A stretch of 26,517 bases of DNA from the IMG/VR virus record IMGVR_UViG_2778261459_000001, positions 1-26,517 of that record. One strand, given 5' to 3'. This document shows positions 4,589-25,665 of the stretch, in pieces. Position 1 is the stretch's first letter. Every line of letters starts with the position of its first letter. The stretch is from a virus. Its lineage: Duplodnaviria > Heunggongvirae > Uroviricota > Caudoviricetes. A program made the translations under genes and the position numbers. The notes below the pieces were generated by a model, which searched no databases, was not told the DNA's origin, and saw only the letters and a program-made list of their open reading frames with translations.

Positions 4589-4619
4589 CGCTGCCCATAT
4601 CGATGGGCAACTCATGCAA

Positions 4620-4913: not shown

Positions 4914-5093
4914 CTTATTATCCTGCATTGTTAAAAACGGCAGAATCCTATGTGACAACAATTAAACGATAGTTAAATGGATTGATGAAAATTAAAACTA
5001 TATAGGTGTACGGTCAGACTATTGGAGGTAGTCAGGATTTGAATGTCAGTCTGTTGTCGGCATTCTGGCAATGCAATTTGGATAAAGCGGGGA

Positions 5094-5438: not shown

Positions 5439-5789
5439 ATGCCATCACGAATCCCAAAAGCCTGCCGTGTTCGTGGCTGCCGCCATACCACCACAGACCC
5501 GTCAGGCTATTGTGAAAGCCACAAAAGCGAAGGCTGGAAGCAATACAAGCCAGGACAATCCCGTCATCAGCGCGGTTATGGTTCGAAGTGGGATGTTATC
5601 CGCGTGCGTGTGTTGAAGCGTGACAAAGGCCTGTGTCAGTTATGTCTGCGTGCTGGTGTGGTGCGTGAGGCGAAAACCGTTGACCACATCATCCCTAAAG
5701 CGCATGGCGGCACTGATGCCGACTGTAATCTGCAGAGTCTGTGCTGGCCGTGTCATAAGGCGAAGACGGCCCGTGAACGACTTAAGTGA
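5439..5789 (+). CDS. HNH endonuclease (packaging-associated, HK97 gp74-like position)
   Basis: GGAG 7 nt upstream of ATG 5439. Translation contains CxxC...CxxC and H-N-H elements (CQLCLRAG...VDHIIPKAHGG...NLQSLCWPCH). Sits immediately upstream of the terminase small subunit. Confidence 0.85.
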   Translation: MPSRIPKACRVRGCRHTTTDPSGYCESHKSEGWKQYKPGQSRHQRGYGSKWDVIRVRVLKRDKGLCQLCLRAGVVREAKTVDHIIPKAHGGTDADCNLQSLCWPCHKAKTARERLK

Positions 5790-5815
5790 TAATAATTCTC
5801 AACTGTCTGAGGGGA

Positions 5816-5877
5816 GGGGCGGGTCAAATCTCTGTGACCTGACGTCTTCCGGACTGCCCGCCCCATCGTTTTTTTAT
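5816..5877 (+). terminator. GGGGCGGG...CCCGCCCC stem with a 33-nt loop followed by T7 run; terminator-like, or part of a cos region
   Basis: 8-bp GC stem (5816-5823 / 5857-5864), then ATCGTTTTTTTAT, between the HNH and terS genes. Confidence 0.3.
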
Positions 5878-5914
5878 ACCCGCGAAAAATGAAATTTAAC
5901 CAGGAGTGCCGCAT

Positions 5915-6400
5915 ATGGCTGGAACGGCGGGGCGTTCCGGGCGTCGCCCCAAGCCAACGGCGCGCAAGGCGCTGGCCGGAAACCCCGGCAAGCGAGCCCT
6001 GAACAAAGATGAACCTGTTTTTACGCCCATCAAAGGTGTTGAGCCACCGGAGTGGTTCGCTGAAGAAGATCTCCCTCTCGCCACGATCATGTGGCAACTG
6101 ACAACCAAAGAACTCTGCGGTCAGGGCCTGCTGTGCGTGACTGACCTGGCGGTACTTGAGCGGTGGTGTGTGGCCTATGAATTCTGGCGACGTGCCGTGA
6201 AAAATATTGCCAGACAGGGCAACACCATCACCGGTGCAATGGGCGGCATGGTCAAAAATCCGGAGCTGACCGCCAAAAAAGAACAGGAGTCCGAGATGAG
6301 CAGCACGGGGGCAATGCTCGGACTCGACCCCAGCAGCCGCCAGCGTCTGATTGGCCTGGCGGGGAAGAAGAAAGCCACTAACCCGTTTCTGACAATCTGA
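5915..6400 (+). CDS. terminase small subunit (P27-family-like)
   Basis: SD CAGGAG 8 nt before ATG 5915. N-terminal motif [29 protein letters not shown] is characteristic of this small-subunit family. Immediately upstream of the large subunit. Confidence 0.85.
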
Positions 6401-6413
6401 AAATCATCGAATC

Positions 6414-8147
6414 ATGAGCCGGAAATCTTACCCCAACGTAAATGCAGCCAATCAGTATGCCCGTGATGTCGTGCGCGGAAAGATTGTGGCCTGCCAGTTT
6501 GTGATTCAGGCCTGCCAGCGCCATCTTGATGACCTGATGGCGGAAAAAAGTAAGTCGTTTCGTTACCGCTTCGACAAGGACCTGGCTGAACGGGCCGCCA
6601 AATTTATTCAGCTGTTGCCGCATACCAAGGGTGAGTGGGCATTCAAACGGATGCCCATCACGCTGGAGCCGTGGCAGCTCTTTGTGATCTGCTGTGCGTT
6701 TGGCTGGGTCAATAAAGGTACCCGGCTGCGCCGCTTCCGGGAGGTGTATACCGAAATCCCCCGTAAGAACGGCAAATCGGCAATCTCTGCCGGTGTCGCC
6801 CTGTATTGTTTTGCCTGTGATAACGAGTTTGGCGCGGAAGTGTATTCCGGTGCCACGACAGAGAAACAGGCGTGGGAAGTCTTTCGCCCGGCGCGACTGA
6901 TGTGTAAACGCACACCCATGCTGACGGAAGCGTTCGGGATTGAGGTTAACGCCTCAAACATGAACCGTCCGGAGGATGGCGCGCGGTTTGAACCGCTGAT
7001 CGGTAACCCCGGTGATGGATCATCACCCCACTGTGCGGTGGTGGATGAATATCACGAGCACGCCACCGATGCGCTTTACACCACGATGCTTACCGGGATG
7101 GGGGCGCGACGTCAGCCACTGATGTGGGCCATTACTACTGCCGGGTACAACATTGAGGGGCCGTGCTACGACAAGCGGCGGGAAGTCATCGAGATGCTCA
7201 ACGGCTCGGTGCCTAACGATGAACTGTTCGGGATCATCTATACCGTTGATGAAGGTGACGACTGGACCGACCCGCAGGTGCTGGAAAAAGCCAATCCAAA
7301 TATTGGCGTGTCGGTTTATCGCGAATTTTTGTTAAGTCAGCAGCAGCGTGCGAAAAATAACGCCCGTCTGGCAAACGTCTTTAAAACAAAACACCTCAAT
7401 ATCTGGGTGTCGGCGCGTTCGGCGTATTTCAACCTGGTGAGCTGGCAGAGCTGCGAGGATAAATCACTGACCCTTGAGCAGTTCGAGGGGCAGCCGTGCA
7501 TTCTGGCCTTTGATCTGGCGCGTAAGCTGGATATGAACAGCATGGCGCGACTTTATACCCGCGAGATTGACGGTAAAACGCATTACTACAGTGTGGCCCC
7601 GCGCTTCTGGGTACCGTATGACACGGTGTACAGCGTCGAGAAAAATGAAGATAGACGGACAGCCGAACGCTTTCAGAAATGGGTGGAAATGGGCGTCCTG
7701 ACCGTTACCGATGGTGCAGAGGTGGATTATCGCTACATCCTCGAGGAGGCCAAAGCAGCGAACAAAATCAGCCCGGTCAGTGAGTCACCCATCGACCCCT
7801 TCGGGGCGACCGGGTTGTCACATGACCTTGCTGATGAAGACCTGAACCCCATCACTATCATTCAGAACTACACCAACATGTCCGACCCGATGAAAGAGCT
7901 GGAAGCGGCAATTGAATCGGGGCGCTTTCATCATGATGGCAATCCCATCATGACCTGGTGTATCGGCAACGTGGTCGGCAAAACCATTCCGGGTAACGAT
8001 GATGTGGTGAAGCCCGTCAAAGAGCAGGCGGAAAACAAAATCGATGGTGCAGTTGCGCTGATTATGGCGGTTGGCAGAGCCATGCTGTACGAGAAAGAAG
8101 ACACGTTGTCTGACCACATTGAGTCCTATGGGATCCGCTCGCTTTAA
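6414..8147 (+). CDS. terminase large subunit
   Basis: 577-aa ORF following terS; size, position and overall character match large terminase of HK97-like phages. Confidence 0.9.
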
Positions 8148-8158
8148 CTGAGGTAATT

Positions 8159-8341
8159 ATGATCATGCTGATTCTCGCGCCTCTGGTGGGCGTGCTGGGG
8201 GCGCTTTTGCTGGCGTATGGTGCCTGGCTGATTTATCCCCCGGCGGGGTTTGTTGTTGCCGGGGCGTTGTGTCTGTTCTGGTCGTGGCTGGTGGCGCGAT
8301 ATCTCGACCGTACACAGTCGTCTGTCGGCGGAGGTAAATAG
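8159..8341 (+). CDS. small membrane protein (60 aa, two predicted TM helices) between terminase and portal
   Basis: SD GAGGT before ATG 8159. Translation [49 protein letters not shown]... is almost entirely hydrophobic; stop overlaps the portal GTG start. Confidence 0.5.
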
Positions 8342-9582
8342 TGTTCTTTTCGGGATTATTTCAACGAAAAAGTGACGCACCGGTGACCACGCCAGCAGAG
8401 CTGGCGGATGCTATCGGGTTGTCCTACGACACCTATACCGGAAAGCAGATCAGCAGCCAGCGGGCCATGCGACTGACGGCGGTTTTTTCCTGTGTCAGGG
8501 TGCTGGCGGAGTCGGTCGGGATGTTGCCCTGCAACCTGTATCACCTGAACGGCAGCCTGAAGCAGAGAGCCACTGGCGAACGTCTGCATAAGCTGATCTC
8601 CACGCATCCCAATGGCTATATGACGCCGCAGGAGTTCTGGGAGCTGGTGGTCACCTGTCTGTGCCTGCGGGGAAACTTTTACGCCTACAAAGTGAAAGCA
8701 TTTGGCGAAGTGGCTGAACTGCTGCCCGTCGATCCCGGCTGTGTGGTACCGAAGCTTAACAGTAGCTGGGAGCCGGTCTATCAGGTCACATTCCCGGATG
8801 GCTCCACGGATGTACTGAGCCAGGAGGATATCTGGCATGTGCGCACGCTGACGCTGGACGGACTGGTGGGGCTGAATCCCATCGCCTATGCCCGCGAGGC
8901 AATATCGCTGGCGGCAGCGACCGAAGAGCACGGGGCCAGACTGTTCAGCAATGGCGCGGTGACGTCGGGTGTGTTGCGTACAGAGCAGACGCTGTCAGAT
9001 CAGGCTTATGAGCGCCTGAAGAAAGATTTTGAGGAGCGTCACACCGGGCTTGGCAATGCTCACCGCCCGATGATCCTTGAGATGGGGCTGGACTGGAAGT
9101 CGATGGCGCTGAACGCCGAGGACAGCCAGTTCCTGGAAACCCGCAAGTTTCAGCTTGAAGAAATCTGTCGTCTGTTCCGGGTGCCGTTGCACATGGTGCA
9201 GAACACCGATCGCGCCACCTTCAACAATATCGAAGAGCTGGGGCTGGGATTTATCAACTATTCACTGGTGCCGTATCTGACCCGCATCGAACAGCGGATC
9301 AACACCGGACTGGTACGAAAAAGTAAGCAGGGCGTTTATTACGCCAAATTTAACGCCGGGGCGTTACTGCGCGGGGATATGAAGTCCCGTTTTGAAGCCT
9401 ACGCCACCGGGATCAACTGGGGAATTTACTCTCCCAATGACTGCCGCGACCTGGAAGATATGAATCCGCGTCCCGGTGGTGATGTCTATCTCACACCGAT
9501 GAACATGACCACGAAACCCTCCGATGGCAGTAAAGCCGGTAAGCAGAAGGATAACGCCAATGCAGACGAAACAACGTCTTGA
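8341..9582 (+). CDS. portal protein (HK97 family)
   Basis: 413 aa following terL; GTG start with GGAGGT SD; canonical position and size. Confidence 0.9.
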   Translation: MFFSGLFQRKSDAPVTTPAELADAIGLSYDTYTGKQISSQRAMRLTAVFSCVRVLAESVGMLPCNLYHLNGSLKQRATGERLHKLISTHPNGYMTPQEFWELVVTCLCLRGNFYAYKVKAFGEVAELLPVDPGCVVPKLNSSWEPVYQVTFPDGSTDVLSQEDIWHVRTLTLDGLVGLNPIAYAREAISLAAATEEHGARLFSNGAVTSGVLRTEQTLSDQAYERLKKDFEERHTGLGNAHRPMILEMGLDWKSMALNAEDSQFLETRKFQLEEICRLFRVPLHMVQNTDRATFNNIEELGLGFINYSLVPYLTRIEQRINTGLVRKSKQGVYYAKFNAGALLRGDMKSRFEAYATGINWGIYSPNDCRDLEDMNPRPGGDVYLTPMNMTTKPSDGSKAGKQKDNANADETTS

Positions 9583-10210
9583 TGTACCGCTGAGTCTGAA
9601 ATCTGTCAGTGACTCCGGTGAGTTTGAAGGGTATGGCTCCGTCTTTGGTGTAAAGGACAGCCACGATGATGTGGTGATGTCCGGGGCATTTGCTGCTTCC
9701 CTGCGGGCGTGGAGTGACAGAAAAGCGTTACCTGCGCTGCTCTGGCAGCACCGCATGGATGAACCCATCGGTGTTTACACCGAAATGAAGGAAGACGATG
9801 TCGGGCTTTACGTCAGGGGGCGGTTGCTCATTGATGATGATCCCCTGGCAAAACGCGCACATGCACACATGAAGGCCGGTTCGTTAACCGGCCTTTCTAT
9901 TGGGTACGTCCTGAAGGACTGGGAATACGACCGGACGAAAGAAGCCTTTCTGCTGAAAGAAATCGACCTCTGGGAAGTCAGTCTGGTGACGTTTCCGTCT
10001 AACGACGAGGCGCGGATCAGCGACGTCAAGAACGCGCTGGCCCGCGGGGAAATCCCCGAACAGAAAAAAATCGAAAGAGTCCTGCGTGATGTCGGACTCT
10101 CCCGTACCCAGGCCAAAGCATTCATGGCCGGGGGCTATGGCGCACTGTCCCTGCGCGACGCTGAGGATGTGGGCTCTGCACTGAATGCACTGAAAAATCT
10201 GAACTTCTAA
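9560..10210 (+). CDS. prohead maturation protease (HK97 family, peptidase U35-like)
   Basis: AAGGA SD 8 nt before ATG 9560, overlapping the portal 3' end; between portal and capsid genes. The track's 9524 start is an alternative. Confidence 0.85.
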   Translation: MQTKQRLDVPLSLKSVSDSGEFEGYGSVFGVKDSHDDVVMSGAFAASLRAWSDRKALPALLWQHRMDEPIGVYTEMKEDDVGLYVRGRLLIDDDPLAKRAHAHMKAGSLTGLSIGYVLKDWEYDRTKEAFLLKEIDLWEVSLVTFPSNDEARISDVKNALARGEIPEQKKIERVLRDVGLSRTQAKAFMAGGYGALSLRDAEDVGSALNALKNLNF

Positions 10211-10224
10211 TCAGGAGAAATACG

Positions 10225-11430
10225 ATGGCGGTAGATATTAAAGATGTCGAACAGGTCGCGCAGGAGCTGCAGCAGAAGTTTGACGACTTCAAAGCAAAGA
10301 ACGACAAGCGCGTGGATGCGATTGAGCAGGAAAAAGGCAAGCTTGCCGGGCAGGTGGAAACCCTGAACGGGAAACTCAGCGAGCTGGAAAATCTCAAAAG
10401 CGATCTTGAAAAAGAGCTGCTTGAGCTGAAACGTCCGGCAGGTGGCGCGCAAAATAAACTGGCCACCGAGCATAAAGAAGCGTTTGTGGGCTTTTTGCGT
10501 AAAGGCCGTGAAGATGGTCTGCGCGATCTGGAGCGTAAGGCATTGCAGGTGGGCACCGATGAAGACGGTGGCTATGCCGTGCCGGAAGCGCTGGATCGCA
10601 ACATTCTCACCCTGCTGAAAGATGAAGTGGTGATGCGCCAGGAAGCCACGGTGATCACCGTTGGCGGTTCCGACTACAAAAAACTGGTGAATCTGGGCGG
10701 CACGGCTTCCGGATGGGTGGGGGAAACGGATACGCGATCCCAGACTGCCACCTCCAGACTGGAGCTGATTGAACCTCTCATGGGGGAAATCTACGGCAAC
10801 CCGCAGGCCACCCAGAAAATGCTGGATGATGCCTTCTTCAACGTGGAGGCCTGGATCAACAGCGAGCTGGCAACCGAATTTGCCGAACAGGAAGAAATTG
10901 CCTTTACCACCGGCGATGGTACCAAGAAGCCGAAAGGGTTCCTGGCGTATGAATCCACTGATGAAACCGATAAGGTCCGGGCGTTCGGCAAACTTCAGCA
11001 TATTGTATCCGGCGAAGCGACCGCGGTGACCGCAGACGCCATTATCAAACTGATTTACACGCTGCGAAAGGCACACCGCACTGGCGCGAAGTTCATGATG
11101 AACAACAACAGCCTGTTTGCCATCCGTCTGCTGAAAGACACCGAGGGTAACTATCTGTGGCGTCCGGGGCTGGAACTGGGGCAGCCGTCCTCTCTGGCGG
11201 GTTACGGTATCGCTGAAAACGAACAGATGCCGGATATCGCCGCTGATGCGAAAGCCATTGCATTTGGTAACTTCAAACGGGGTTACACCATCGTTGACCG
11301 TATCGGCACCCGCATTCTGCGTGATCCGTACACCAATAAACCGTTTGTCGGTTTTTATACCACCAAGCGCACCGGCGGGATGCTGGTCGATTCGCAGGCC
11401 ATCAAACTGCTGAAGATTGCAGCGGCGTAA
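10225..11430 (+). CDS. major capsid protein (HK97 fold) with N-terminal coiled-coil delta/scaffold domain
   Basis: 401 aa. N-terminal ~100 residues are highly charged and heptad-like (EQVAQELQQKFDDFKAKNDKRVDAIEQEKGKLAGQVETLNGKLSELENLKSDLEKELLELK); no separate scaffold gene is present, as in HK97. Confidence 0.92.
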   Translation: MAVDIKDVEQVAQELQQKFDDFKAKNDKRVDAIEQEKGKLAGQVETLNGKLSELENLKSDLEKELLELKRPAGGAQNKLATEHKEAFVGFLRKGREDGLRDLERKALQVGTDEDGGYAVPEALDRNILTLLKDEVVMRQEATVITVGGSDYKKLVNLGGTASGWVGETDTRSQTATSRLELIEPLMGEIYGNPQATQKMLDDAFFNVEAWINSELATEFAEQEEIAFTTGDGTKKPKGFLAYESTDETDKVRAFGKLQHIVSGEATAVTADAIIKLIYTLRKAHRTGAKFMMNNNSLFAIRLLKDTEGNYLWRPGLELGQPSSLAGYGIAENEQMPDIAADAKAIAFGNFKRGYTIVDRIGTRILRDPYTNKPFVGFYTTKRTGGMLVDSQAIKLLKIAAA

Positions 11431-11437
11431 TCATTCA

Positions 11438-11457
11438 GGGGCGCGGAACCGCGCCCC
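11438..11457 (+). terminator. GC hairpin GGGGCGCG-GAAC-CGCGCCCC immediately after the capsid gene (attenuator/terminator)
   Basis: Perfect 8-bp GC stem 8 nt after the capsid stop, followed by TGTTCTGA (weak U-tract). Confidence 0.45.
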
Positions 11458-11479
11458 CTGTTCTGACGGGTGAAGAATC

Positions 11480-11680
11480 ATGATCCTGAAACAAGATCTG
11501 AAATGGTCACCGGACGGTATGCGTGTTGAGGTCATTCGGGCCGGTGAGTATGACGACGGGGCGCTTCCTGCCCGGGTGCAGGAGATTGCACTTCAGGCCG
11601 GGTTAGCTGAGCGCGGAACCAATGCAAAAAGCAGTAAAGCGGCAAAAGAGAAAAAAGCCACGACCAGTAAAGAGAGCTGA
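11480..11680 (+). CDS. hypothetical protein (66 aa), Lys/Ala-rich C-terminus
   Basis: ORF in the late operon between capsid and connector genes; weak SD; no family recognised. Confidence 0.4.
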   Translation: MILKQDLKWSPDGMRVEVIRAGEYDDGALPARVQEIALQAGLAERGTNAKSSKAAKEKKATTSKES

Positions 11681-11682
11681 GT

Positions 11683-12006
11683 ATGCTTCTGACAATGGAA
11701 GAGATTAAAGCCCAACTCCGGCTGGATGAGGATTTCGATGCTGATGACCGCCATCTGCAACTGCTGGCCTGTGCGGCGCAAAAGCGGACGGAAACGTATC
11801 TGAACCGGAAGCTCTATGCACCGGATGAATCCATTCCGGACAGCGATCCGGACGGGCTGCACCTGCCGGATGATATTCGTCTGGGGATGCTGATGCTTAT
11901 CAGCCATTTTTACGAAAACCGCTCGTCGGTTACGGAAGTGGAGAAACTCGACATGCCGCAGAGTTTTGGCTGGCTTGTCGGCCCGTACAGGTACTTTCCG
12001 CAATGA
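11683..12006 (+). CDS. head-tail connector (gp6-like)
   Basis: 107 aa in the canonical post-capsid position; start MLLTMEEIKAQLRLD... resembles gp6-type connector/DNA-packaging proteins. Confidence 0.7.
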   Translation: MLLTMEEIKAQLRLDEDFDADDRHLQLLACAAQKRTETYLNRKLYAPDESIPDSDPDGLHLPDDIRLGMLMLISHFYENRSSVTEVEKLDMPQSFGWLVGPYRYFPQ

Positions 12007-12413
12007 AAATTCGTCAGGCGCAGACCAGCGCAACTTACATTCTGCCGGACCCCGGTGAACTGAATAAATGCGTCCTGATCCGCCTGCGGGTGGATATGCC
12101 CGCGGATAACTTTGGCGTGGAGCCTCAATACCCGGTTACGTTCCGGACATGGGCGAAGGTTATCCAGACCAGTGCCACCACCTGGCAGGAAACCGCGCAG
12201 ACCGGGGACGCCATCACCCATTACATCACCATTCGTTACCGCCGGGGGATCACCGCTGATTATGAGGTGGTCTGCGGTGACAGTGTGTACCGGGTGAAAC
12301 GTCAGCGCGATCTGAACGGGGCGCGGCGCTTTCTGCTGCTGGAGTGTACGGAGCTGGGCGAATGTAGGCAGAGTCACGGAGGCAACAATGACGACTTCCT
12401 TTTTGCACGTTGA
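12003..12413 (+). CDS. head closure / head-tail adaptor protein
   Basis: ATG overlaps the upstream stop (ATGA); size and position fit a head-tail joining protein. Confidence 0.65.
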   Translation: MKIRQAQTSATYILPDPGELNKCVLIRLRVDMPADNFGVEPQYPVTFRTWAKVIQTSATTWQETAQTGDAITHYITIRYRRGITADYEVVCGDSVYRVKRQRDLNGARRFLLLECTELGECRQSHGGNNDDFLFAR

Positions 12414-12894
12414 TTTTCAGCAGCCCGCGGAGATGCGCTTTAACCGCGCCCGTGTCCGGCGGGCGTTTGTCACGATTGGTCAGCGTCATATGCGTGATGC
12501 CCGTCGGCTGGTGATGCGCCGTGCGCGGTCGGCACCGGGTGAAAACCCCGGTTATCAGACCGGACGCCTGGCTCGTTCGATTGGTTACATGGTACCCAGA
12601 GCCAGTAAACATCGCCCTGGTTTTATGGCACGTATAGCCCCTAACCAGCGTAATGGAGAGGGAAACCGCCGTATCACCGGTGATTTTTATCCGGCTTTTT
12701 TGTTCTATGGCGTGAGGCGAGGGGCAAAGCGTCGTCGCAGCCATCATCGTGGCGCATCCGGTGGCAGCGGCTGGCGACTGGCTCCACGTAATAACTTCAT
12801 GGTGGAAACGCTTGAAAAGAACCGCAGCTGGACACGCTATTTTCTGGCGCGGGAATTGCGTAAATCACTGAAGCCGGAGCGACGACACAGATGA
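12388..12894 (+). CDS. HK97 gp10-like morphogenesis protein, Arg-rich
   Basis: GGAGG 7 nt before ATG 12388. Basic, Arg-rich 168-aa protein in the head-to-tail joining region. Confidence 0.65.
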   Translation: MTTSFLHVDFQQPAEMRFNRARVRRAFVTIGQRHMRDARRLVMRRARSAPGENPGYQTGRLARSIGYMVPRASKHRPGFMARIAPNQRNGEGNRRITGDFYPAFLFYGVRRGAKRRRSHHRGASGGSGWRLAPRNNFMVETLEKNRSWTRYFLARELRKSLKPERRHR

Positions 12895-13451
12895 AACTGA
12901 CGCCTGTTATTGCTGCACTGCGTGCCCGCTGTCCGTATTTTGAAAACCGGGTTGCAGGCGCGGCCCAGTTCAAAAATCTGCCGGAGGTCGGAAAGCTGAA
13001 ACTCCCGGCGGCATATGTTGTACCGGGTGATGATTCTCCGGGAGAAAACAAAAGCCAGACCGACTACTGGCAGGAGCTGAAAGAGGGTTTCTCCGTGGTT
13101 GTCATACTGAGTAACGGGCGTGATGAGCGCGGTCAGTTTGCCTCGTATGATGTGGTGGACGATGTCCGGCAGATGCTCTTTAAGGCTCTGCTGGGCTGGA
13201 ACCCGGAGGCGTGCGGTAACCCGATTACCTATGACGGCGGCACGCTGCTGGATCTGAATCGTCATGAGCTGATTTATCAGTTCGATTTTTCGGTCATCAG
13301 CGAGCTGACTGAAGACGATACCCGCCATCAGGATGACCTGAACAGTCTGGATGAACTGCAAACGCTGGCGATTGATGTTGATTATCTCGAGCCCGGTAAC
13401 GGGCCTGACGGCGATATCGAACATCACACCGAAATAACCCTTCCTTCCTGA
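12891..13451 (+). CDS. Mu gp37-like tail component (tail completion/terminator-like)
   Basis: 186 aa, start overlaps the upstream stop; lies just upstream of the DUF2635-like/sheath/tube block as in Mu-like tail modules. Confidence 0.6.
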   Translation: MKLTPVIAALRARCPYFENRVAGAAQFKNLPEVGKLKLPAAYVVPGDDSPGENKSQTDYWQELKEGFSVVVILSNGRDERGQFASYDVVDDVRQMLFKALLGWNPEACGNPITYDGGTLLDLNRHELIYQFDFSVISELTEDDTRHQDDLNSLDELQTLAIDVDYLEPGNGPDGDIEHHTEITLPS

Positions 13452-13459
13452 GGATCCTC

Positions 13460-13630
13460 ATGTTTGTGAAACCTGTTAAAGGGCGGTCAGTTCCTGACCC
13501 TGCCCGCGGCGACCTTTTGCCCGCCGAAGGGCGAAATGTTGACGAGAACAACTACTGGCTGCGCCGTGAAGCAGCGGGTGATATCCGGCGCGTGAATAAA
13601 AAGGTGAACACCGATGACGATAAGCTTTAA
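13460..13630 (+). CDS. small protein (56 aa), Mu gp38 / DUF2635-like, overlapping the sheath start
   Basis: ATG 13460 to TAA 13628-13630: MFVKPVKGRSVPDPARGDLLPAEGRNVDENNYWLRREAAGDIRRVNKKVNTDDDKL. Below the track cut-off. Mu-like phages carry a small gene in this position. Confidence 0.5.
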   Translation: MFVKPVKGRSVPDPARGDLLPAEGRNVDENNYWLRREAAGDIRRVNKKVNTDDDKL

Positions 13631-15735: not shown

Positions 15736-15884
15736 CGGCTGAATACCTCACTGATCGCTTCTTTGACTGCGCCAGTTACTGGCGCATTAATCCCTTCGAA
15801 TTGCTGAATATGCCGATCAGTGAAATTCCCTTGCTGGTCAGTCAGGCAAACAGGATAGAGCAGGAGAAACGCACACATGGCTGA
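15717..15884 (+). other. putative programmed -1 frameshift: slippery heptamer T_TTT_TTC (15717-15723) and -1 frame extension to 15884
   Basis: In the chaperone frame the codons are GGT TTT TTC 12 codons before the stop. The -1 frame is open from the slip site to TGA 15882-15884, which overlaps the tape measure ATG (15877), giving a fusion ending ...RIEQEKRTHG. Confidence 0.5.
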
Positions 15885-17712
15885 ATTTGAGCTTAAGGCG
15901 TTGATCACCGGTGTCGACAGACTTTCTCCCGCGCTGTCGAAAATGCAAAAGAAAATCCGGGGATTTAAACGCCAGGCGGAAGAAGCGTCACAGGGTGGGC
16001 TGGCGCTTGGTGGCGGACTGGCAGCGGGTCTGACGCTTTCCCTGAAATCTTATGCCGATCAGGAAAACGCCGCCACCGGGCTGAAAGTCGCCATGATGGA
16101 TGCGAACGGCGAGGTTGGAAAGAGCTTTCAGGACATCAATAAACTGGCTATTGGCCTGGGTAACCAGCTACCCGGTACAACGGCTGATTTCCAGAACATG
16201 ATGCAGATGCTGGTGCGTCAGGGGATCCCGGCAGAAAACATTCTTGGTGGTGTGGGTAAAGCGACAGCTTATCTTGCGGTACAACTGAAAAAAACACCGG
16301 AAGCGGCTGCTGAGTTTGCTGCAAAGATGCAGGATGCTACCGGAACGGCGTCAGAAGACATGATGGGGCTGTTCGACACTATCCAGAAGGCGTTTTATCT
16401 GGGCGTTGACGATACCAACATGTTGTCCTTCTTCACTAAAACCAGTTCTGTTCTGAAGATGGTGAACAAGGACGGTCTTCAGGCTGCACAGAGCCTTGCC
16501 CCCATCAGCGTCATGATGGATCAGATGGGGATGAACGGGGAGTCGGCAGGTAATGCCCTGCGAAAAGTTATCCAGTCCGGATTAAGTGTTAAGAAAATCA
16601 GGGACGTCAATAAAGTCATGGCTCGCCAGAAACTCGGGGTACAGCTCGATTTTACTGACGGCAAAGGAAGTTTTGGCGGTCTTGATAACATGTTCAGGCA
16701 ACTGGCAAAGTTGCGAAAACTGACCGACGTTAAGCGAACAGGCGTACTTAAGGCAATATTTGGTGATGATGCTGAAACCCTTCAGGTGGTCAATGCTCTG
16801 ATCGATAAAGGAAAGGATGGTTACGATCAGATCCAGCAGAAGATGAATAAACAGGCCAGCCTGAATAAACGTGTTCAGGCACAGCTTGGTACGCTGTCCA
16901 ACCTGTGGGAGGCAATGACGGGGACCGCAACTAACGGTCTTGCAGCTATTGGCGGCGCATTTTCTGGTGACGCTAAAAATATCACGCAATGGCTGGGGGA
17001 GTTGGGGGAAAAATTCACGAAGTTTGCGGATGAAAATCCCCGGGTTATTCGCGGCGTCGTCGGGCTTGCTGCCGGTCTTGCGATTCTGAAACTGGGATTG
17101 ATGGGCGTGGGCAGTGCCATCAGTATTGTCAGCAGGATCATGTCGATGACGCCGATTGGCATGATTGCGACGGCGATAGCCCTGGCTGCGGGATTAATTA
17201 TCACTAACTGGGATGTTGTCGGACCTTATTTTAAGAAACTCTGGGAAACCATTGGTCCTTATTTTGAGGCTGGCTGGGAACTCCTTAAGAAAGTTTTTGC
17301 CTGGTCGCCGCTGGGGATGGTGATCAATAACTGGGGGCCGGTTGTTAAGTGGTTTCAGGATATGTGGGACAAGCTGAAGCCAATTATTGAGTGGTTTACC
17401 GACAGTTCCGGTGACACGGTCGATGCCATTAACTCTGCGCAGTGGGGCGCGGGTGCTTATGATGCTTATGGGACGGGAATACCGGCGCGGGGATACACAC
17501 CTTATCCGGTGGTGGATCCGGCTCAGTCAAACAACGCCTCCGGTGCCACAGGCCCGAATCCCTTCATGATTAACAAAGCTTCTGCGCCAAAAGTTGATGG
17601 TGAGATCAAGGTCTCTTTTGTGAATTCGCCTCCGGGTATGCGGGTTATGGAAACGCGATCCAGCGGTTTTGATGTCAGCCATGATGTTGGCTATACGCGC
17701 TTTGGCAGGTAA
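15877..17712 (+). CDS. tail tape measure protein
   Basis: 611 aa with Ala/Gly-rich and hydrophobic segments and a Trp-rich C-terminal region; follows the chaperone frameshift pair. Confidence 0.9.
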   Translation: MAEFELKALITGVDRLSPALSKMQKKIRGFKRQAEEASQGGLALGGGLAAGLTLSLKSYADQENAATGLKVAMMDANGEVGKSFQDINKLAIGLGNQLPGTTADFQNMMQMLVRQGIPAENILGGVGKATAYLAVQLKKTPEAAAEFAAKMQDATGTASEDMMGLFDTIQKAFYLGVDDTNMLSFFTKTSSVLKMVNKDGLQAAQSLAPISVMMDQMGMNGESAGNALRKVIQSGLSVKKIRDVNKVMARQKLGVQLDFTDGKGSFGGLDNMFRQLAKLRKLTDVKRTGVLKAIFGDDAETLQVVNALIDKGKDGYDQIQQKMNKQASLNKRVQAQLGTLSNLWEAMTGTATNGLAAIGGAFSGDAKNITQWLGELGEKFTKFADENPRVIRGVVGLAAGLAILKLGLMGVGSAISIVSRIMSMTPIGMIATAIALAAGLIITNWDVVGPYFKKLWETIGPYFEAGWELLKKVFAWSPLGMVINNWGPVVKWFQDMWDKLKPIIEWFTDSSGDTVDAINSAQWGAGAYDAYGTGIPARGYTPYPVVDPAQSNNASGATGPNPFMINKASAPKVDGEIKVSFVNSPPGMRVMETRSSGFDVSHDVGYTRFGR

Positions 17713-17733
17713 TGAAAAATTAATCTGTTAATG

Positions 17734-17759
17734 AGTCCCACTCCGGTGGGATTTTTTAT
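17734..17759 (+). terminator. hairpin AGTCCCAC-TCCG-GTGGGATT followed by TTTTTAT, just after the tape measure gene
   Basis: Stem-loop plus U-tract 22 nt after the tape measure stop; lies inside the track's upstream extension of the next ORF, supporting the later start at 17773. Confidence 0.45.
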
Positions 17760-17772
17760 GTACGGAGTTTAT

Positions 17773-19101
17773 ATGACGTGGAAAGACAGACTTCAGGACG
17801 CGTCATTTCGCGGTGTGCCGTTTAAGGTTGAAGAAGAAAGTACGGGAACCGGTCGTCGTGTGGAAACGCACGAATACCCGAACCGCGACAAACCCTATAC
17901 CGAAGACCTGGGGAAAATCACTTTCCGCCCGTCCATCACGGCTTATGTGGTGGGAGATGACTGCTTTGACCAGCGCGATCGGCTGATTGACGCGCTGAAT
18001 AAACCCGGTCCCGGCACGCTTGTCCATCCGACTTACGGTGAGCTGAAAGTCTGTGTTGACGGAGAGGTTCGGGTCAGCACATCGAAGAGTGAAGGGCGTA
18101 TTGTCCGCTTTGACCTGAAGTTTGTCGAAGCGGGAGAACTCTCTTACCCCACTTCAGGTGCGGCGACGGCGCAGACGCTGATGTCATCCTGTTCTGCACT
18201 GGATGACTGCATCAGTGACAGCTTCAGCGGTTTCAGTATCGATGGCGTGGCGGATTTCGTGCAGAACGACGTTATTGGTAATGCCAGCATAATGCTGGGG
18301 TATGTTTCTGATGCGATGAAAGTGGTGGATTCTGCCGTATCGGATGCCGCCAGGCTGTTGCAGGGGGATATCTCGGTACTTCTGCCGCCGCCATCGTCAG
18401 GCAAAAATTTCGTTGAGCAGGTGCAGAAAATGTGGCGTACCGGGAAACGCCTTTATGGTAACGCCAGCGACCTGGTCACCATGATCAAAACGCTTTCCGG
18501 TGTCAGCCTCGGCAGTGATCTGCAACCGCGCGGCGTCTGGAAAACGGACAGTAAAACCACCGCTACGGCGACGCAGCAGCGTAACGTGGTTGCCAGCACC
18601 CTTCGTACGACCGCAATCAGCGAAGCGGCGTATGCCGTCACCCGATTGCCTGCGCCAACAACTTCCGCGGTGATGCAGAATGCCGCAGTGGGGCAGGCAA
18701 CAACAGCTGCACAGAGCACCGGCTGGCCTTCCGTCACGCATCCGGCACTGAACAATGCACCGGCGGTGAAAAACACGGTTGACCTGCCGACGTGGGAAGA
18801 ACTGACTGACATTCGCGACACACTGAATACGGCAATTGATAAGGAGTTGTCCCGTACAACCAGTGATGCGCTGTTTCTGGCGCTGCGCCGGGTGAAAGCA
18901 GATCTGAATGCGGATATCAACACGCGCCTTGAACAGTCTGCACGGATCATTCAGCGCACACCGGATGAGGTTTTACCCGCGCTGGTGCTGGCGGCGACCT
19001 GGTTTGATAACGCGGCGCGTGACGCGGACATTATCCGGCGTAATGCCATTACGCATCCCGGCTTTGTGCCGGTGATCCCTCTGAAGGTGCCAGTGCAATG
19101 A
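17773..19101 (+). CDS. Mu gpN-like DNA circularization / tail protein
   Basis: GGAG 6 nt before ATG 17773 (MTWKDRLQDASFRGVPFKVEEE...); first gene after the tape measure gene as in Mu-like tails. Confidence 0.8.
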   Translation: MTWKDRLQDASFRGVPFKVEEESTGTGRRVETHEYPNRDKPYTEDLGKITFRPSITAYVVGDDCFDQRDRLIDALNKPGPGTLVHPTYGELKVCVDGEVRVSTSKSEGRIVRFDLKFVEAGELSYPTSGAATAQTLMSSCSALDDCISDSFSGFSIDGVADFVQNDVIGNASIMLGYVSDAMKVVDSAVSDAARLLQGDISVLLPPPSSGKNFVEQVQKMWRTGKRLYGNASDLVTMIKTLSGVSLGSDLQPRGVWKTDSKTTATATQQRNVVASTLRTTAISEAAYAVTRLPAPTTSAVMQNAAVGQATTAAQSTGWPSVTHPALNNAPAVKNTVDLPTWEELTDIRDTLNTAIDKELSRTTSDALFLALRRVKADLNADINTRLEQSARIIQRTPDEVLPALVLAATWFDNAARDADIIRRNAITHPGFVPVIPLKVPVQ

Positions 19102-20177
19102 ACGACAATGTCACGCTACGGGTAAATGGCCGGGAGTGGAATGGCTGGACATCGGTGCGCATCGGTGCCGGTATTGAACGGCTGGCGCGGGATTTCAGTG
19201 TGGAGATCACCCGCCAGTGGCCGGGTGATGAGGGTATCACCACGCTTCAGCCGCGCATTAAAAACGGTTCAAAAGTGGAGGTGCTGATTGGTGATGAGCT
19301 GGTGATCACCGGCTGGGTGGAGGCGACGCCCGTTCGTTACGATGCCCGTTCGGTCAGCACCGGTATTGCCGGACGCAGTCTGACCGCTGACCTGATTGAC
19401 TGTGCAGCCGAACCGACACAGTTTAACGGACGATCGCTGGTACAGATAGCGCAGGCGCTTGCTGCGCCTTTCGGCATTGAGGTGGTGAACAACGGTGCGC
19501 CGTCGGGTGTTATTCCTGACGTCCAGCCCGATCACGGCGAAACGGTGATTGAGGTGATCAACAAAATACTCGGTCAGCAGCAGGCACTGGCTTACGACGA
19601 CCCGCACGGCAGGCTGGTGATTGGCGGTATTGGCTCAACGCGGGCACATACCGCGCTGGTACTCGGGGAAAACATCCTTTCCTGTGATACGGAGAAGAGT
19701 ATCCGGGAGCGGTTTTCAGTTTACCAGGTGGCGGGGCAGCGTGCCGGAAACGACGATGATTTCGGTGAGGCCACCACCACCGCGCTGCGGGCCCGCACAG
19801 AGGACGCATTTATTGCCCGTTACCGTCCGATGTATATCAGGCAGACAGGGCAGGCCACGGGGGCAGGCTGTATTGCGCGTGCTGACTTTGAAGCCCGGCA
19901 ACGGGCGGCGCGGACGGATGAAACCACCTATGTGGTGCAGGGCTGGCGACAGGGTAACGGTACGCTGTGGCAGCCCAACCAGCGGGTGATTGTCTTTGAT
20001 CCGGTCTGTGGTTTCGACAATACCGAACTGCTTGTTTCGGAAGTCACGTTTACTCAGGACCAGAACGGCACCCTGACGGAAATCCGTGTCGGCCCGCCTG
20101 ATGCTTATCTGCCTGAACCCGAAGCCCCCGGCGCGCGGAAAAAGAAAAAAGCCAGAGTACAGGAGGACCCGTTCTGA
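19098..20177 (+). CDS. Mu gpP-like tail/baseplate hub protein
   Basis: 359 aa, ATGA overlap with the upstream gene; position and size match. Confidence 0.8.
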   Translation: MNDNVTLRVNGREWNGWTSVRIGAGIERLARDFSVEITRQWPGDEGITTLQPRIKNGSKVEVLIGDELVITGWVEATPVRYDARSVSTGIAGRSLTADLIDCAAEPTQFNGRSLVQIAQALAAPFGIEVVNNGAPSGVIPDVQPDHGETVIEVINKILGQQQALAYDDPHGRLVIGGIGSTRAHTALVLGENILSCDTEKSIRERFSVYQVAGQRAGNDDDFGEATTTALRARTEDAFIARYRPMYIRQTGQATGAGCIARADFEARQRAARTDETTYVVQGWRQGNGTLWQPNQRVIVFDPVCGFDNTELLVSEVTFTQDQNGTLTEIRVGPPDAYLPEPEAPGARKKKKARVQEDPF

Positions 20178-20725
20178 TGAGGACGATTGAAGCCATGCAG
20201 CGACAACTCCTCGGCCTGATTGGGCGGGCCGTGGTGAAAAGCATCAGTGCCGCCACGAAATGTCAGACCGTGGATGTGTTCCTGATTGCCGGTGAACCCA
20301 AAGCCGGGGTTGAACATCTTGAACCCTACGGTTTTACCGCAAGGGCAAACAGCGGTGCGGAAGCGGTGGTGTTGTTTCCGGATGGCGACCGTTCTCATGC
20401 GGTGGTTGTTACGGTGTCGGACCGTCGCTACCGCCTGAAAGGGCTGCAGACGGGTGAGGTGGCTGTCTATGACGATCAGGGGCAGTCCGTGACGCTGACC
20501 CGGGAGGGGATCGTGGTGGACGGTGCAGGTAAAACGATCACGTTTCGCAATGCACCTGAAGCACGTTTTGAAATGGACCTGGAAGTGACAGGACAGGTGA
20601 AAGACCTGTGCGACTCCGGCGGCACCACCATGTCAGCGATGCGGCTTGCCTATAACGGGCATAGTCACAGAGAGAACGGTCAGGGCAGTAACACCGACAA
20701 ACCGGATAAAGCGATGGAGGCATGA
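20177..20725 (+). CDS. baseplate assembly protein V (spike, Mu gp45-like)
   Basis: 182 aa, start overlaps the upstream stop; fits gpV-type proteins by position and size. Confidence 0.8.
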   Translation: MRTIEAMQRQLLGLIGRAVVKSISAATKCQTVDVFLIAGEPKAGVEHLEPYGFTARANSGAEAVVLFPDGDRSHAVVVTVSDRRYRLKGLQTGEVAVYDDQGQSVTLTREGIVVDGAGKTITFRNAPEARFEMDLEVTGQVKDLCDSGGTTMSAMRLAYNGHSHRENGQGSNTDKPDKAMEA

Positions 20726-21150
20726 TGGAACTGTGGCTGACGGTGAACGGTAAACGCACCTGCGCCAGCGCACCGCTGGATCCGCTGACCCGCGCCGTGG
20801 TGATTTCCCTGTTTACCTGGCGGCGGGCGGAGCCTGATGACAACGCCGACGTCCCGATGGGATGGTGGGGGGATACCTGGCCTGCGGTACAGAATGACCG
20901 TTACGGCTCCCGACTGTGGCTGCTTCAGCGCAGCAAACTGACCAATCAGCTGGTGCAGACGGTAAGGGGGTATATCCGCGAATGCCTGCAATGGATGATT
21001 GATGATGGCGTGGTGTCCCGTATTGATCTGGATATCCGCCGCACCGGGATTAATGAACTGGGTAACAGTATCACTCTCTGGCGTCGTGACGGACCGGTAA
21101 TGATTTCTTTTGATGATCTGTGGAGTGCGATAACGCATGGCGGACAGTGA
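20722..21150 (+). CDS. baseplate protein (Mu gp46 / gpW-gp25-like)
   Basis: 142 aa, ATGA overlap; between the V-like and J-like genes. Confidence 0.75.
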   Translation: MMELWLTVNGKRTCASAPLDPLTRAVVISLFTWRRAEPDDNADVPMGWWGDTWPAVQNDRYGSRLWLLQRSKLTNQLVQTVRGYIRECLQWMIDDGVVSRIDLDIRRTGINELGNSITLWRRDGPVMISFDDLWSAITHGGQ

Positions 21151-22195
21151 ATTTCAGCGCCCGACGCTGGCAGAAAATATCAGTATGCTCCGTAACGATT
21201 TATTCGCCAGGCTGGACGTCAGCGACACGCTCCGGCGCATGGATGAAGACGTGCGGGCAAAGGTGTATGCGGCGGCGCTGCATACGGTTTACGGTTACAT
21301 CGATTATCTGGCAATGAACATGCTGCCTGACCTGTGCGATGAGTCCTGGCTGGCGCGACATGCTGCGATGAAACGGTGTCCGCGCAAGGGGGCCACGGCT
21401 GCCAGCGGGTATATGCGCTGGGAAGGTGTCAGCGATGGCCTGAAGGTGACTGCCGGGAGCGTGATTCAGCGCGATGACCTGGTTCAGTACACGGCAACTG
21501 CTGATGCAACCAGCTCCGGTGGTGTCCTGCGCGTGCCGATCACTTGCTCAAGTGCAGGCGCGGTCGGTAACGCTGACGACGGTACGGCATTAATCCTGGT
21601 CACGCCGGTTAATGGTCTGCCCTCTTCCGGCGAGGCAGATACCCTGACAGGTGGATTTGATACTGAAGAGCTGGAAACGTGGCGCGCCCGCGTCATTGAG
21701 CGGTATTACTGGACGCCTCAGGGCGGGGCTGACGGGGACTATGTCGTCTGGGCTAAAGAAGTGCCCGGCATTACCCGCGCATGGACATACCGACACTGGA
21801 TGGGAACGGGGACTGTCGGTGTGATGATTGCCAGCAGTGACCTGATTAACCCCATTCCGGAAGAATCAACGGAAACGGCGGCAAGACAACATATCGAGCC
21901 ACTGGCCCCGGTGGCAGGCTCTGATTTGTATGTATTCAGGCCGGTGGCGCACAAAGTGGATTTTCATATCCGCGTGACGCCGGACACACCGGAAATACGG
22001 GCTGCCATCACCGCGGAGTTGCGTTCATTCCTGCTGCGTGATGGTTATCCGCAGGGAGAGCTTAAGGTATCGCGTATCAGTGAAGCGATTTCCGGTGCGA
22101 ACGGGGAATACAGCCATCAGTTGCTTGCACCGGCGGACAATATCTCCATTGCAAAAAATGAACTGGCGGTACTGGGGACGATTTCATGGACGTGA
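21137..22195 (+). CDS. baseplate J-like protein (Mu gp47-like)
   Basis: 352 aa; canonical position and size. Confidence 0.85.
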
Positions 22196-22770
22196 CAAAC
22201 GATGATTATATCCGTCTGTTGTCGGCACTGCTGCCCCCCGGTCCGGCATGGTCAGCCAGCGATCCGGCGATTGCCGGTGCGGCACCTTCATTAACCCGTG
22301 TTCATCAGCGTGCGGATGCCCTGATGCGGGAGCTGGATCCGCGCACCACCACCGAACTGATAAATCGCTGGGAGCGTCTGTGCGGCCTGCCGGATGAATG
22401 CATTCCGGCGGGAACGCAGACCCTTCGCCAGCGTCAGCAACGGCTGGATGCGAAGGTTAACCTGGCGGGCGGTATCAATGAGGATTTTTACCTTGCTCAG
22501 CTTGCTGCTCTGGGCAGACCAGACGCCACCATCACGCGATACGACAAAAGCACTTTCACCTGCTCATCGGCCTGTACTGACGCGGTGAATGCGCAGGAAT
22601 GGCGGTATTACTGGCAGGTCAACATGCCAGCCGCCACCAACACCACCTGGATGACATGTGGCGATCCCTGTGATTCCGCACTGCGTATCTGGGGCGACAC
22701 CGTTGTCGAGTGCGTGCTTAACAAACTCTGCCCTTCGCATACCTACGTAATTTTTAAATATCCGGAGTAA
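22186..22770 (+). CDS. Mu gp48-like tail protein (DUF2313-like)
   Basis: 194 aa between the baseplate J-like and tail fiber genes. Confidence 0.75.
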
Positions 22771-22773
22771 TCC

Positions 22774-23787
22774 ATGCATCGTATAGACACGAAAACCGCG
22801 CAGAAGGATAAGTTCGGCGCGGGTAAGAACGGTTTTACCCGTGGTAACCCCCAGACCGGCACACCTGCCACCGATCTGGATGATGACTACTTTGACATGT
22901 TGCAGGAGGAACTTTGCAGCGTGGTGGAGGCATCCGGTGCCAGCCTGGAGAAGGGGCGGCACGACCAGTTACTTACCGCGCTTCGTGCGCTGCTGTTAAG
23001 CCGCAAGAATCCGTTTGGCGATATCAAATCGGATGGCACGGTGAAAACGGCTCTCGAAAACCTTGGTTTATCAGACGTTTTACATAAGGGAAATTTTGGT
23101 GTCGGGAGTAGGCTGCAAGGTAGTGCAGCCGGGAATAGCCATGTCGGTGGATTCATGTATGAACCATATCAGGCGAACAATCTTTACCCGCTAAGTGTGG
23201 CTTTAATGCAGGCAGCAGGCCCGACATCGACAGAATGGGCGCAGCTGGCTGTTTCATATGGTGGGGCATTCAGAGCTTTCCTTGGGCGACAGACTTATAA
23301 TGGAAATCCTGAAATCAGTGAGTTGTACCATGACCAGCGTAAGCCGTCTGCGTCGGATGTTGGTGCCCAACCTCTGAATGCAACTCTCACCACTCTTAGT
23401 GGAAAAGATGCGGCAGGATTAAGGAGCGTCCTAGGGCTTGGAACAACAGCCACAAGAAACGTAGGTACGGGAGCGTCACAAATACCTGATATGAGTTCGT
23501 TTTTAAGCGGATCTACAGCATCAGCTTTTTGGTACAAACTTCCTGGTGGCATGGTGGTGATGGGGGGTAATGCATCTGGAATCGCCTCTGGAACTGCAGG
23601 TAATGCGGTCTTCTTCCCAGTGCCATTCCCAAATGTTTGCTCAAGCGTTGTCGTGACATTAGTCAGCAACGGGTTATATGCCGACACAGTCTCGTTTAAT
23701 ACATATATCCCTGGAACTGACCGTTTTAACGTTTATACGAATACAAGCGGCACGTACGCTATTTATTACCTGGCGTTTGGGAGTTGA
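22774..23787 (+). CDS. tail fiber protein with conserved N-terminal anchor and divergent, lower-GC C-terminal domain
   Basis: 337 aa. N-terminus [55 protein letters not shown]... is the conserved baseplate-attachment region of this fiber family. DNA composition becomes AT-richer from about 23040 onward. Confidence 0.8.
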
Positions 23788-23788
23788 T

Positions 23789-24205: not shown

Positions 24206-24215
24206 GGTGGACATC

Positions 24216-24380: not shown

Positions 24381-24402
24381 AGTATTTGTTTGCAGGAATA
24401 AA

Positions 24403-25648: not shown

Positions 25649-25665
25649 TACATTGGAGGTGGTCC

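Follow-up and report, generated by a model that had tools for sequence, protein, structure and literature searches.

The pairing of an HK97-type head with a Mu-type contractile tail has been a textbook example of modular evolution since Shigella phage SfV was sequenced in 2002. SfV and its relatives are lambdoid, cos-packaging myoviruses whose morphogenesis genes are organized as in SfV, phiP27, ST64B, and the prophage e14 (PMC3636060). SfI, SfII, and SfV have been induced and identified as myoviruses by electron microscopy (PMC3636060). The papers on SfI and SfIV describe the same architecture, myovirus morphology, and cos packaging (PMC3636060, PMC3851460). The integration site of the group is thrW, next to proA (PMC3636060). 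The DNA considered here is a complete 26,517-bp draft contig (IMG/VR record IMGVR_UViG_2778261459_000001), referred to as the window, which derives from a draft assembly of E. coli or Shigella. Judged from its sequence, the region 5439-23787 of the window very likely belongs to a lambdoid temperate myophage of the SfV/SfII/SfI/SfIV group and forms its late (virion) operon.

A Virion Operon of the SfV Group

The region 5439-23787 consists of an uninterrupted series of open reading frames (ORFs) on the plus strand, ~26 genes that form one co-directional operon. The order is HNH endonuclease, cos, P27-family small terminase (terS), large terminase (terL), portal, S78 protease, HK97-family capsid, connectors, a contractile tail and baseplate in Mu order, and a fibre. 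The GC content of this module is 53-60%, compared with 37-47% in its flanks. Gene families were assigned with Pfam, NCBIfam, and PHROGs, and these profile scans together name every component; NCBIfam had no names for the fibre, tail fibre assembly chaperone (tfa), orf57, acyltransferase, neck, and terminator proteins. The HK97 and Mu genomes were also searched by tblastn with each window protein. A first-pass annotation, made from the sequence alone, had described HK97-type head genes joined to a Mu-type tail. The profile and tblastn searches show its gene list and coordinates to be correct, with all genes on the plus strand, and the lambdoid setting that it proposed agrees with the Q-lysis region lying upstream of the virion module.

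Evidence for the group assignment comes from comparison with the type phages SfII (NC_021857), SfI (NC_027339), and SfV (NC_003444). The DNA of the module is 97.4-97.9% identical to that of SfII, SfI, SfIV, and SfV over 73-96% of its length. SfII aligns as one collinear high-scoring segment pair of 17,280 nt, spanning window positions 5790-23069 with a single gap. SfII and SfI are 97.6-97.9% identical to the window in DNA from cos to the fibre N-terminus and have the same gene order, ORF lengths (terL-gp48), head cassette, and 10-nt cos end. They likewise carry the HNH gene directly upstream of cos. From terL to gp48, none of the 21 ORFs differs in length from its SfII counterpart, and amino acid identities are 93-100%. 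This stretch has no stop codons, and its Nei-Gojobori dN/dS ratio was 0.088 against SfII, 0.074 against EC28, and 0.087 against S1-INA-02-A (the latter two being complete-genome counterparts described below). Such low ratios indicate strong purifying selection.

Several of the traits expected of each part are present in the window. The packaging trait of the SfV group is seen as a 10-nt cos end between HNH and a P27-family terS. An HK97-type head module is recognizable by a capsid protein with a delta domain, the lack of a scaffold gene, and neighbouring genes for the S78 protease and portal. A Mu-type tail is evident in homologues of gp38, L, M, N, P, and gp45-48, which keep the Mu order.

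Adjacent genes overlap at 14 of the 25 junctions, by 1-26 nt. Matches to a sigma-70-like promoter in the module (7) were fewer than in shuffled sequences (14.4), which is consistent with a single long late operon. An Rfam scan of the whole window returned no family at the gathering score. It had been claimed that all genes are intact with overlapping stop and start codons. The ORFs are indeed uninterrupted and the 14 junctions do overlap, but terS is shortened and its overlap with terL is gone.

The module was found in 2189 of 5426 complete E. coli genomes (~40%), and 822 of these cover at least 80% of it. In other words, the virion module is already described and very common, and the window holds a typical member of a well-described phage group. 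The HK97-head/Mu-tail chimerism is standard modular mosaicism that was fixed long ago in the SfV group, and no recent event is seen here.

Several observations weigh against the assignment. The window, which is the whole contig, holds no int, xis, repressor, or replication genes and no att site, and the prophage is known from its late half only. No characterised virion carries its host-range end, since near-identical DNA to the fibre tip, tfa, and orf57 and a tblastn match to the acyltransferase are both lacking among 50,697 deposited phage records. For the tape measure, neck, and terminator proteins, membership in Mu families cannot be demonstrated. Lastly, an insertion in terS cuts the last three residues, alters another, and uncouples terS from terL, and it is recurrent in at least 93 records. 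As to the lambdoid backbone, quuD and the lysis cassette are present, and the contig does not extend to cI, cro, O, and P, which EC28 and S1-INA-02-A carry.

Counterparts in Complete Genomes and State of the Prophage

The EC28 complete genome is collinear with window positions 1-23069 at 97.9% identity, the bor-HNH junction included, and the alignment is broken only by a 1-nt gap and an 8-nt insertion. In EC28 the module belongs to a full prophage that occupies icd, the site of e14, and carries int, xis, red, cI, O, and P genes of lambda-like type. S1-INA-02-A is collinear with window positions 5439-26517 and 99.9% identical from 22700 onward, with a different Q-lysis region upstream. These two genomes bear on the idea that the contig is an assembly chimera, in which a DLP12-like remnant and an SfV-like prophage were joined via a shared repeat and their linkage is artificial. 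The window is a short-read draft contig ending in repeat-prone prophage DNA, and the different Q-lysis region before the same module in S1-INA-02-A would also fit such a joining. However, both mosaic junctions are reproduced in EC28 and S1-INA-02-A, which argues against a chimera and leaves it very improbable.

In S1-INA-02-A the prophage measures ~38.9 kb; it is integrated at thrW, beside proA, and a 56-bp repeat of thrW bounds it. Its attR repeat is located ~1.2 kb past the point equivalent to the window end, and neither this repeat nor a thrW fragment is present in the window. As a result, neither an att site nor int could be found on the contig. A tRNA scan of the window also found none; therefore, there is no tRNA-type att site in it.

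Is the prophage functional? The intact and selected virion operon, cos, and the lysis cassette favour a late region that would be functional, and the chances that this prophage is inducible appear evenly balanced. The alternative is a defective (cryptic) prophage, a recently stranded copy in which the virion operon looks intact and particles are blocked by damage elsewhere (int/xis, repressor, replication, or att) or by the short terS. The contig lacks the early half, terS has its 3' insertion, and gene fragments (a truncated S24/UmuD-like ORF, a transposase, and tfa) lie to the right of the acyltransferase. Furthermore, the K-12 prophage e14 documents the decay of exactly this module. On the other hand, none of the 21 core ORFs is shortened, their dN/dS is ~0.08, and the cos site and lysis cassette are intact. 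In addition, the terS allele is widespread, with annotations that treat it as intact, and relatives laid out in this way are complete prophages of ~39 kb bounded by att sites. A defective prophage is thus a real possibility that falls somewhat short of likely, and a late operon of an SfV-group temperate phage is the preferred reading of the region. The top phage match, vB_EcoM-689R6, was not counted as evidence of inducibility because it comes from an in-silico prophage survey.

Packaging Genes and the cos Site

The operon begins with an HNH endonuclease gene at 5439-5789 (PF01844, E = 5e-15), located directly upstream of cos and terS. Its product is a predicted accessory nuclease for cos cleavage, with 84% amino acid identity to the SfII HNH protein and 42% to HK97 gp74 in the tblastn search. 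In HK97, gp74 stimulates cos cleavage by TerL, and an HNH gene beside cos and terminase is a known part of HK97-type packaging (PMC9410871). A second source also describes a role for gp74 in cos cleavage by TerL (PMC3592412).

A cos cohesive-end sequence, TGCCCGCCCC, is located at 5855-5864 inside the 125-nt spacer between HNH and terS (5790-5914), and it occurs once in the window. The 10-nt cohesive end of phage SfI was determined experimentally as 5'-TGCCCGCCCC-3' (PMC3636060). The window sequence is identical to it, and its use as a cohesive end is demonstrated for SfI only. The deposited records of the type phages begin at or near this site, at window positions 5790 (SfII), 5848 (SfV), and 5866 (SfI).

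The small terminase gene terS, at 5915-6400 with an alternative GTG start at 5906, belongs to the P27 family (PF05119; TIGR01558, sm_term_P27), and its product is 98% identical to that of SfII. It contains an 8-nt insertion, TCTGACAA, at 6388-6395, which is an imperfect tandem copy of the following 8 nt, TCTGAAAA, and aligns with a gap in SfII, EC28, and S1-INA-02-A. Owing to the insertion, TerS ends in ...NPFLTI* instead of ...NPFLKII..*; it is three residues shorter and one further residue is changed. The insertion has also abolished the overlap between terS and terL, which are 13 nt apart here and joined by an ATGA overlap in the SfII-type allele. The insertion allele occurs in 93 complete E. 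coli records at ≥99% identity (100% among the matches listed), and both genes are annotated as intact there. Since the allele recurs and is annotated as intact, it is a circulating variant and not a sequencing error.

The large terminase gene terL (6414-8147) encodes an ATPase and nuclease (PF03354, PF20441) with 98% identity to SfII and 26% to HK97 gp2. The initial labels of HNH, P27-like small terminase, and large terminase are thus supported by these profile matches.

Head Genes and Connectors

The head and packaging proteins match HK97 in the tblastn search, at 26% identity for TerL, 32% for the portal, 36% for the protease, 26% for the capsid, and 42% for HNH. None of the head proteins matches Mu, except for a stray match (E = 0.003) of the protease ORF on the Mu sheath region.

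The portal gene (8341-9582; PF04860, E = 4e-108) encodes a protein 99% identical to the portal of SfII, 32% to HK97 gp3, and 28% to that of SfV. It is followed by an HK97-family prohead serine protease gene at 9560-10210 (Peptidase_S78; TIGR01543, proheadase_HK97). The protease columns aligned with His65 and Ser114 of HK97 gp4 are conserved. Both assignments uphold the names given to these genes at the outset, a portal and a U35-like protease.

The HK97-family major capsid protein is encoded at 10225-11430 and matches TIGR01554 (major_cap_HK97) over residues 6-398. It has an N-terminal delta-like extension of ~114 residues, and the Pfam Phage_capsid domain starts at residue 115. No separate scaffold gene is present, and the gap between the protease and capsid genes is only 14 nt. 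The proposal of a capsid with a fused scaffold domain is therefore supported. The columns of the HK97 crosslink residues K169, N356, and E363 are gaps in the window and SfV capsids in a three-sequence MAFFT alignment, which is unreliable at 26% identity. On this weak alignment, the window capsid may be without an HK97-style chainmail.

The capsid gene is followed by a gene for a 66-residue conserved protein (11480-11680; phrog_1020), which is 97% identical to SfII_07 and has no counterpart in SfV. Next are a gp6-like head-tail adaptor (11683-12006; PF05135) and a head closure protein of the HK97 gp7 family (12003-12413), whose profiles PF05521 and phrog_25 are both common to HK97 gp7. By family, the head side extends through this gp7-like gene and ends at 12413. 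A 168-residue neck or tail completion protein (12388-12894) belongs to phrog_879 (PHROG 'tail completion / Neck1') and has no Pfam match. It gives no match to PF04883, whereas HK97 gp10 does. Of the connectors named gp6/gp10-like, the gp6-like one is thus confirmed by PF05135, but the gp10-like one is so by position only.

Between terL and the portal gene lies a ymfR-like gene for a 60-residue membrane protein (8159-8341; phrog_502), which is 100% identical to SfII_03 and retained in e14. It had no tblastn match in SfV, which does not have the head cassette to which this gene belongs. The gene contains a strong hairpin followed by a T-run at 8177-8204, which the SfII annotation gives as a putative terminator.

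The presence of these genes bears on one more explanation, namely that the region encodes a domesticated tail-only device (tailocin) and not a phage. R-type tailocins usually derive from contractile tails of the Mu and P2 types, and the tail described below is of the former kind. However, the region contains everything needed for packaging and the head (HNH, cos, terS, terL, portal, protease, capsid, and connectors), and this set is under purifying selection. A tailocin can hardly be given any credence, and the genes downstream are best read as the tail half of the SfV-group virion operon.

Contractile Tail and Baseplate Genes

The tail proteins match Mu in the tblastn search, with identities of 42% for gp38, 36% for the sheath, 43% for N (N-terminal domain), 35% for P, 33% for gp45, 45% for gp46, 31% for gp47, and 30% for gp48. 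The E values of these matches range from 1e-11 to 1e-84, and the gene order follows the Mu annotation. No tail protein matches HK97.

The first gene on the tail side (12891-13451) encodes a 186-residue tail terminator, which matches PF23840 (Phage_tail_terminator) with E = 4e-26. It holds the position of Mu gp37, but its match to PF09646 (Gp37) is sub-threshold only, and Mu gp37 itself is PF08873 (Phage_Mu_Gp37). The next gene (13460-13630) encodes a DUF2635 protein (PF10948), the homologue of Mu gp38 at 42% identity. The contractile tail sheath (13614-15110) has three sheath Pfam domains and is 36% identical to Mu L over 500 residues. The tail tube (15110-15466; PF10618) belongs to the family of Mu M.

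The short product of the tail assembly chaperone is encoded at 15466-15735 (PF10109). A slippery heptamer, T-TTT-TTC, is located at 15717-15723, where the zero frame reads GGT TTT TTC. From the heptamer, the -1 frame is open to a TGA at 15882-15884. A full product would therefore be encoded at 15466-15884, overlapping the ATG of the tape-measure gene at 15877. The ORF in the -1 frame (15702-15884) is 97% conserved in SfII and SfV. A -1 frameshift at the heptamer would thus yield an extended chaperone product, and the heptamer and the conserved ORF support the frameshifted chaperone noted initially. The frameshift arrangement of tail chaperones was reportedly found to be conserved by Xu, Hendrix and Duda in 2004.

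The tape measure (15877-17712) is of the TP901/PhageMin_Tail family (PF10145, TIGR01760). It had no tblastn match to Mu gp42, which is TMP_3 (PF20155). The tape-measure gene is followed by genes for a Mu N (gp43)-like 'DNA circularisation' protein (17731-19101; PF07157), with 43% identity to the Mu N N-terminus, and a Mu P (gp44)-like baseplate hub (19098-20177), with GpP-like domains and 35% identity to Mu P over 360 residues. The remaining baseplate genes encode a Mu gp45-like spike or baseplate V protein (20177-20725; PF06890) and a Mu gp46-like, W-like baseplate wedge protein (20722-21150; PF07409). Then come a Mu gp47/Baseplate_J protein (21137-22195; PF04865; 31% to Mu gp47) and a Mu gp48-like protein known as YmfQ (22186-22770; PF10076).

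Not all of these proteins are of Mu families. By profile, the neck, terminator, chaperone, and tape-measure proteins differ from their Mu counterparts: the window proteins match PF23840, PF10109, and PF10145/TIGR01760, while Mu gp36, gp37, gp41, and gp42 match PF07030, PF08873, PF23746, and PF20155. The Mu chaperone matches PF10109 at just 24.7 bits. By family assignment, these window proteins are positional analogues of the Mu proteins only. Accordingly, the Mu-like set listed by the first-pass annotation holds for DUF2635, sheath, tube, gpN, gpP, V, W, J, and gp48, but the tape measure is of the TP901 family and the 'gp37-like' protein (PF23840) is so by position.

How the Module Would Work

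Homology with the systems above suggests how the module would operate. Late transcription would start upstream, in the DLP12-type region with Q (quuD) and the late promoter, pass through the lysis genes, and continue over the entire operon. The P27-family TerS, TerL, and HNH proteins would recognize and cut cos, and DNA would be packaged into an HK97-family prohead built from the portal, the S78 protease, and the capsid protein, the last of which would supply the scaffold through its N-terminal domain. The gp6-like, gp7-like, and neck proteins are predicted to close the head and connect it to a separately assembled contractile tail. This tail would be formed in Mu order, from the terminator, gp38, sheath, and tube through the chaperone with its -1 frameshift and the tape measure to N, P, and gp45-48 (hub/baseplate). 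Finally, a mosaic fibre with its own assembly chaperone would set the host range.

The Host-Range End and the Right Flank

The 337-residue tail fibre gene (22774-23787) has a gp53-like C domain (PF21882). The protein is 91% identical to the SfII fibre over its first 112 residues only, and DNA homology to all phage records ends at 23069. The N-terminal ~100 residues (DNA to 23069) form the conserved baseplate-attachment part; the C-terminal two thirds, which differ, are the receptor-binding part. The annotation of this gene in S1-INA-02-A as a fibre pseudogene, split by PGAP into a 'pseudogene' and a gp53-like protein, is an artefact because that genome has an unbroken ORF with a single residue changed. 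A search of 22000-26517 for long inverted repeats, which would mark a fibre segment that inverts as Mu G or e14 P does, found none.

Downstream of the fibre gene are a probable tfa gene at 23789-24205 on the plus strand (phrog_188, E = 2e-15) and orf57, a 57-residue ORF at 24207-24380 with no family match. No near-identical DNA to the fibre tip, tfa, or orf57 was found among the 50,697 phage records. An Acyl_transf_3 membrane acyltransferase gene lies beyond 5439-23787, at 24426-25508 on the minus strand. It matches PF01757 and phrog_3333 (O-acetyltransferase) and has a GC content of ~36%. Its similarity to Sf6 Oac is distant (28% over 176 residues in the N-terminal half), and it had no tblastn match at E = 1e-5 among the same phage records. 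Identity with the acyltransferase of SfII was considered and rejected, as the two are unrelated. A bidirectional hairpin is located beside the gene at 24402-24421.

The acyltransferase is plausibly a candidate surface-polysaccharide O-acetylase moron because its position equals the site of SfV gtrABC and Sf6 oac. The gtrABC genes themselves were not found in the window, and the single antisense Acyl_transf_3 gene holds their place. The first-pass annotation noted that serotype-conversion genes follow the fibre genes in SfV; in the window, gtrABC is absent and one Acyl_transf_3 gene comes after the fibre genes. The trait of gtrABC at thrW defines the serotype-converting Shigella subset and not the virion module. 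The right-hand cassette (fibre from ~23070, tfa, orf57, and acyltransferase) occurs in only 13 complete E. coli genomes; in S1-INA-02-A it is carried by the prophage integrated at thrW/proA. Tentatively, and with the odds against it, the cassette may represent an uncharacterised host-range and O-acetylation seroconversion variant of the SfV group in E. coli, in which one acetylase replaces gtrABC. The acyltransferase and fibre-tip cassette is the sole part that might alter the phenotype of the host, by acetylating its surface and by setting the receptor specificity of the phage.

The region 25629-25953 contains a truncated 95-residue S24/UmuD(HumD)-like ORF (25666-25953), with a LexA-box-like sequence, TACTGTATGCACATACAG, ~20 nt upstream of it. 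The 99.9% identical region of S1-INA-02-A has the S24/UmuD-like ORF followed by transposase and tfa fragments. This S24/UmuD-like region is probably debris of another element within the thrW-bounded island.

The Left Flank

The left flank is a lambdoid nin/late region of DLP12 type (504-4967, plus strand), 91-97% identical to K-12 DLP12. On the EC28 annotation and the DLP12 match, it carries a ybcO remnant, rusA (590-952), ylcG, and quuD (Q; ~1175-1558). Between quuD and the holin gene lies an uninterrupted nmpC/ompC-like porin gene on the minus strand (1747-2829; Porin_1), which is intact here and split by IS5 in DLP12. The lysis genes are essD (3418-3633), rrrD (3633-4130), rzpD (4115-4588), and rzoD (4347-4529). 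A bor/iss lipoprotein gene on the minus strand (4620-4913; Lambda_Bor) lies 3' of the lysis cassette. The porin and bor/iss genes are classic lambdoid morons.

Comparison with Known Systems

The differences from SfII and SfI lie at the ends of the module and in terS. The window has a different fibre C-terminus and tfa, an Acyl_transf_3 gene in place of their gtrABC (SfII also has its unrelated acyltransferase), a DLP12-type Q-lysis region, and the 8-nt insertion in terS. SfV is ~97% identical in DNA at window positions 5848-8086 (terS and most of terL) and 11682-23069 (the gp6-like gene to the fibre N-terminus). It replaces 8087-11681 (the terL end, ymfR, portal, protease, capsid, and the 66-residue ORF) by a divergent HK97-family cassette, in which amino acid identity is 28% for the portal and 25% for the capsid and the protease has no blast match. 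The SfIV paper makes the same remark on the divergent portal-protease-capsid cassette of SfV (PMC3851460). The likeness to SfV that had been proposed therefore holds for the architecture and for ~97% of DNA positions over most of the module, but the head core is of the SfII/SfI/e14 type and not that of SfV.

More distant relatives share parts of the module. The Stx2e phage phiP27 is 78.7% identical in DNA from terL through the sheath gene and hence has the same join of head and contractile tail. The Salmonella phages ST64B and 118970_sal3 are 89-95% identical from HNH/terS through the gp6-like gene. Their similarity ends at ~12061, in the head-closure gene, which marks an exchange point between head and tail modules. 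HK97 has homologues of TerL, portal, gp4 protease, gp5 capsid, gp6, and gp7, and an HNH gene beside cos. However, its gp1 terminase is unlike the P27-family TerS of the window, and its type of non-contractile tail is not present here. For Mu, the window holds counterparts of gp38, L, M, gp41 (weakly similar), N, P, and gp45-48, arranged alike and with 30-45% amino acid identity, but the Mu head, transposition, and G-segment genes are not present in the window and the Mu tape measure is of another family.

The importance of the window is small beyond correct annotation, in that the contig can be confidently labelled an SfV/SfII-type prophage late region. It also informs the comparison with the cryptic prophages of K-12. 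DLP12 had been offered as the decayed comparator of the virion module, and this was mistaken. In a blastn search of the window against DLP12, only 504-4967 matched (ybcO-rusA-ylcG-quuD-nmpC-essD-rrrD-rzpD-borD) and nothing in 5439-23787 did; DLP12 carries a lambda-type nohD/aaaD terminase remnant in place of the virion module.

The counterpart is e14. Over the compared stretch (9402-12797 of e14), it keeps aaaE-ymfR-beeE, equal to window positions 7011-8748 (97.5%), abutting jayE-ymfQ-stfP, equal to 21408-23069 (96%). Window positions 8749-21407 are gone from e14 in a single clean 12.66-kb deletion, which fuses beeE (5' end of the portal gene) with jayE (3' end of the gp47 gene), and the 5' part of terL is also lost. 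By this alignment, e14 is the decayed K-12 form of the virion module and the window holds the intact operon. Thus, the window module serves as an intact reference that shows e14 of K-12 to be a single-deletion remnant.

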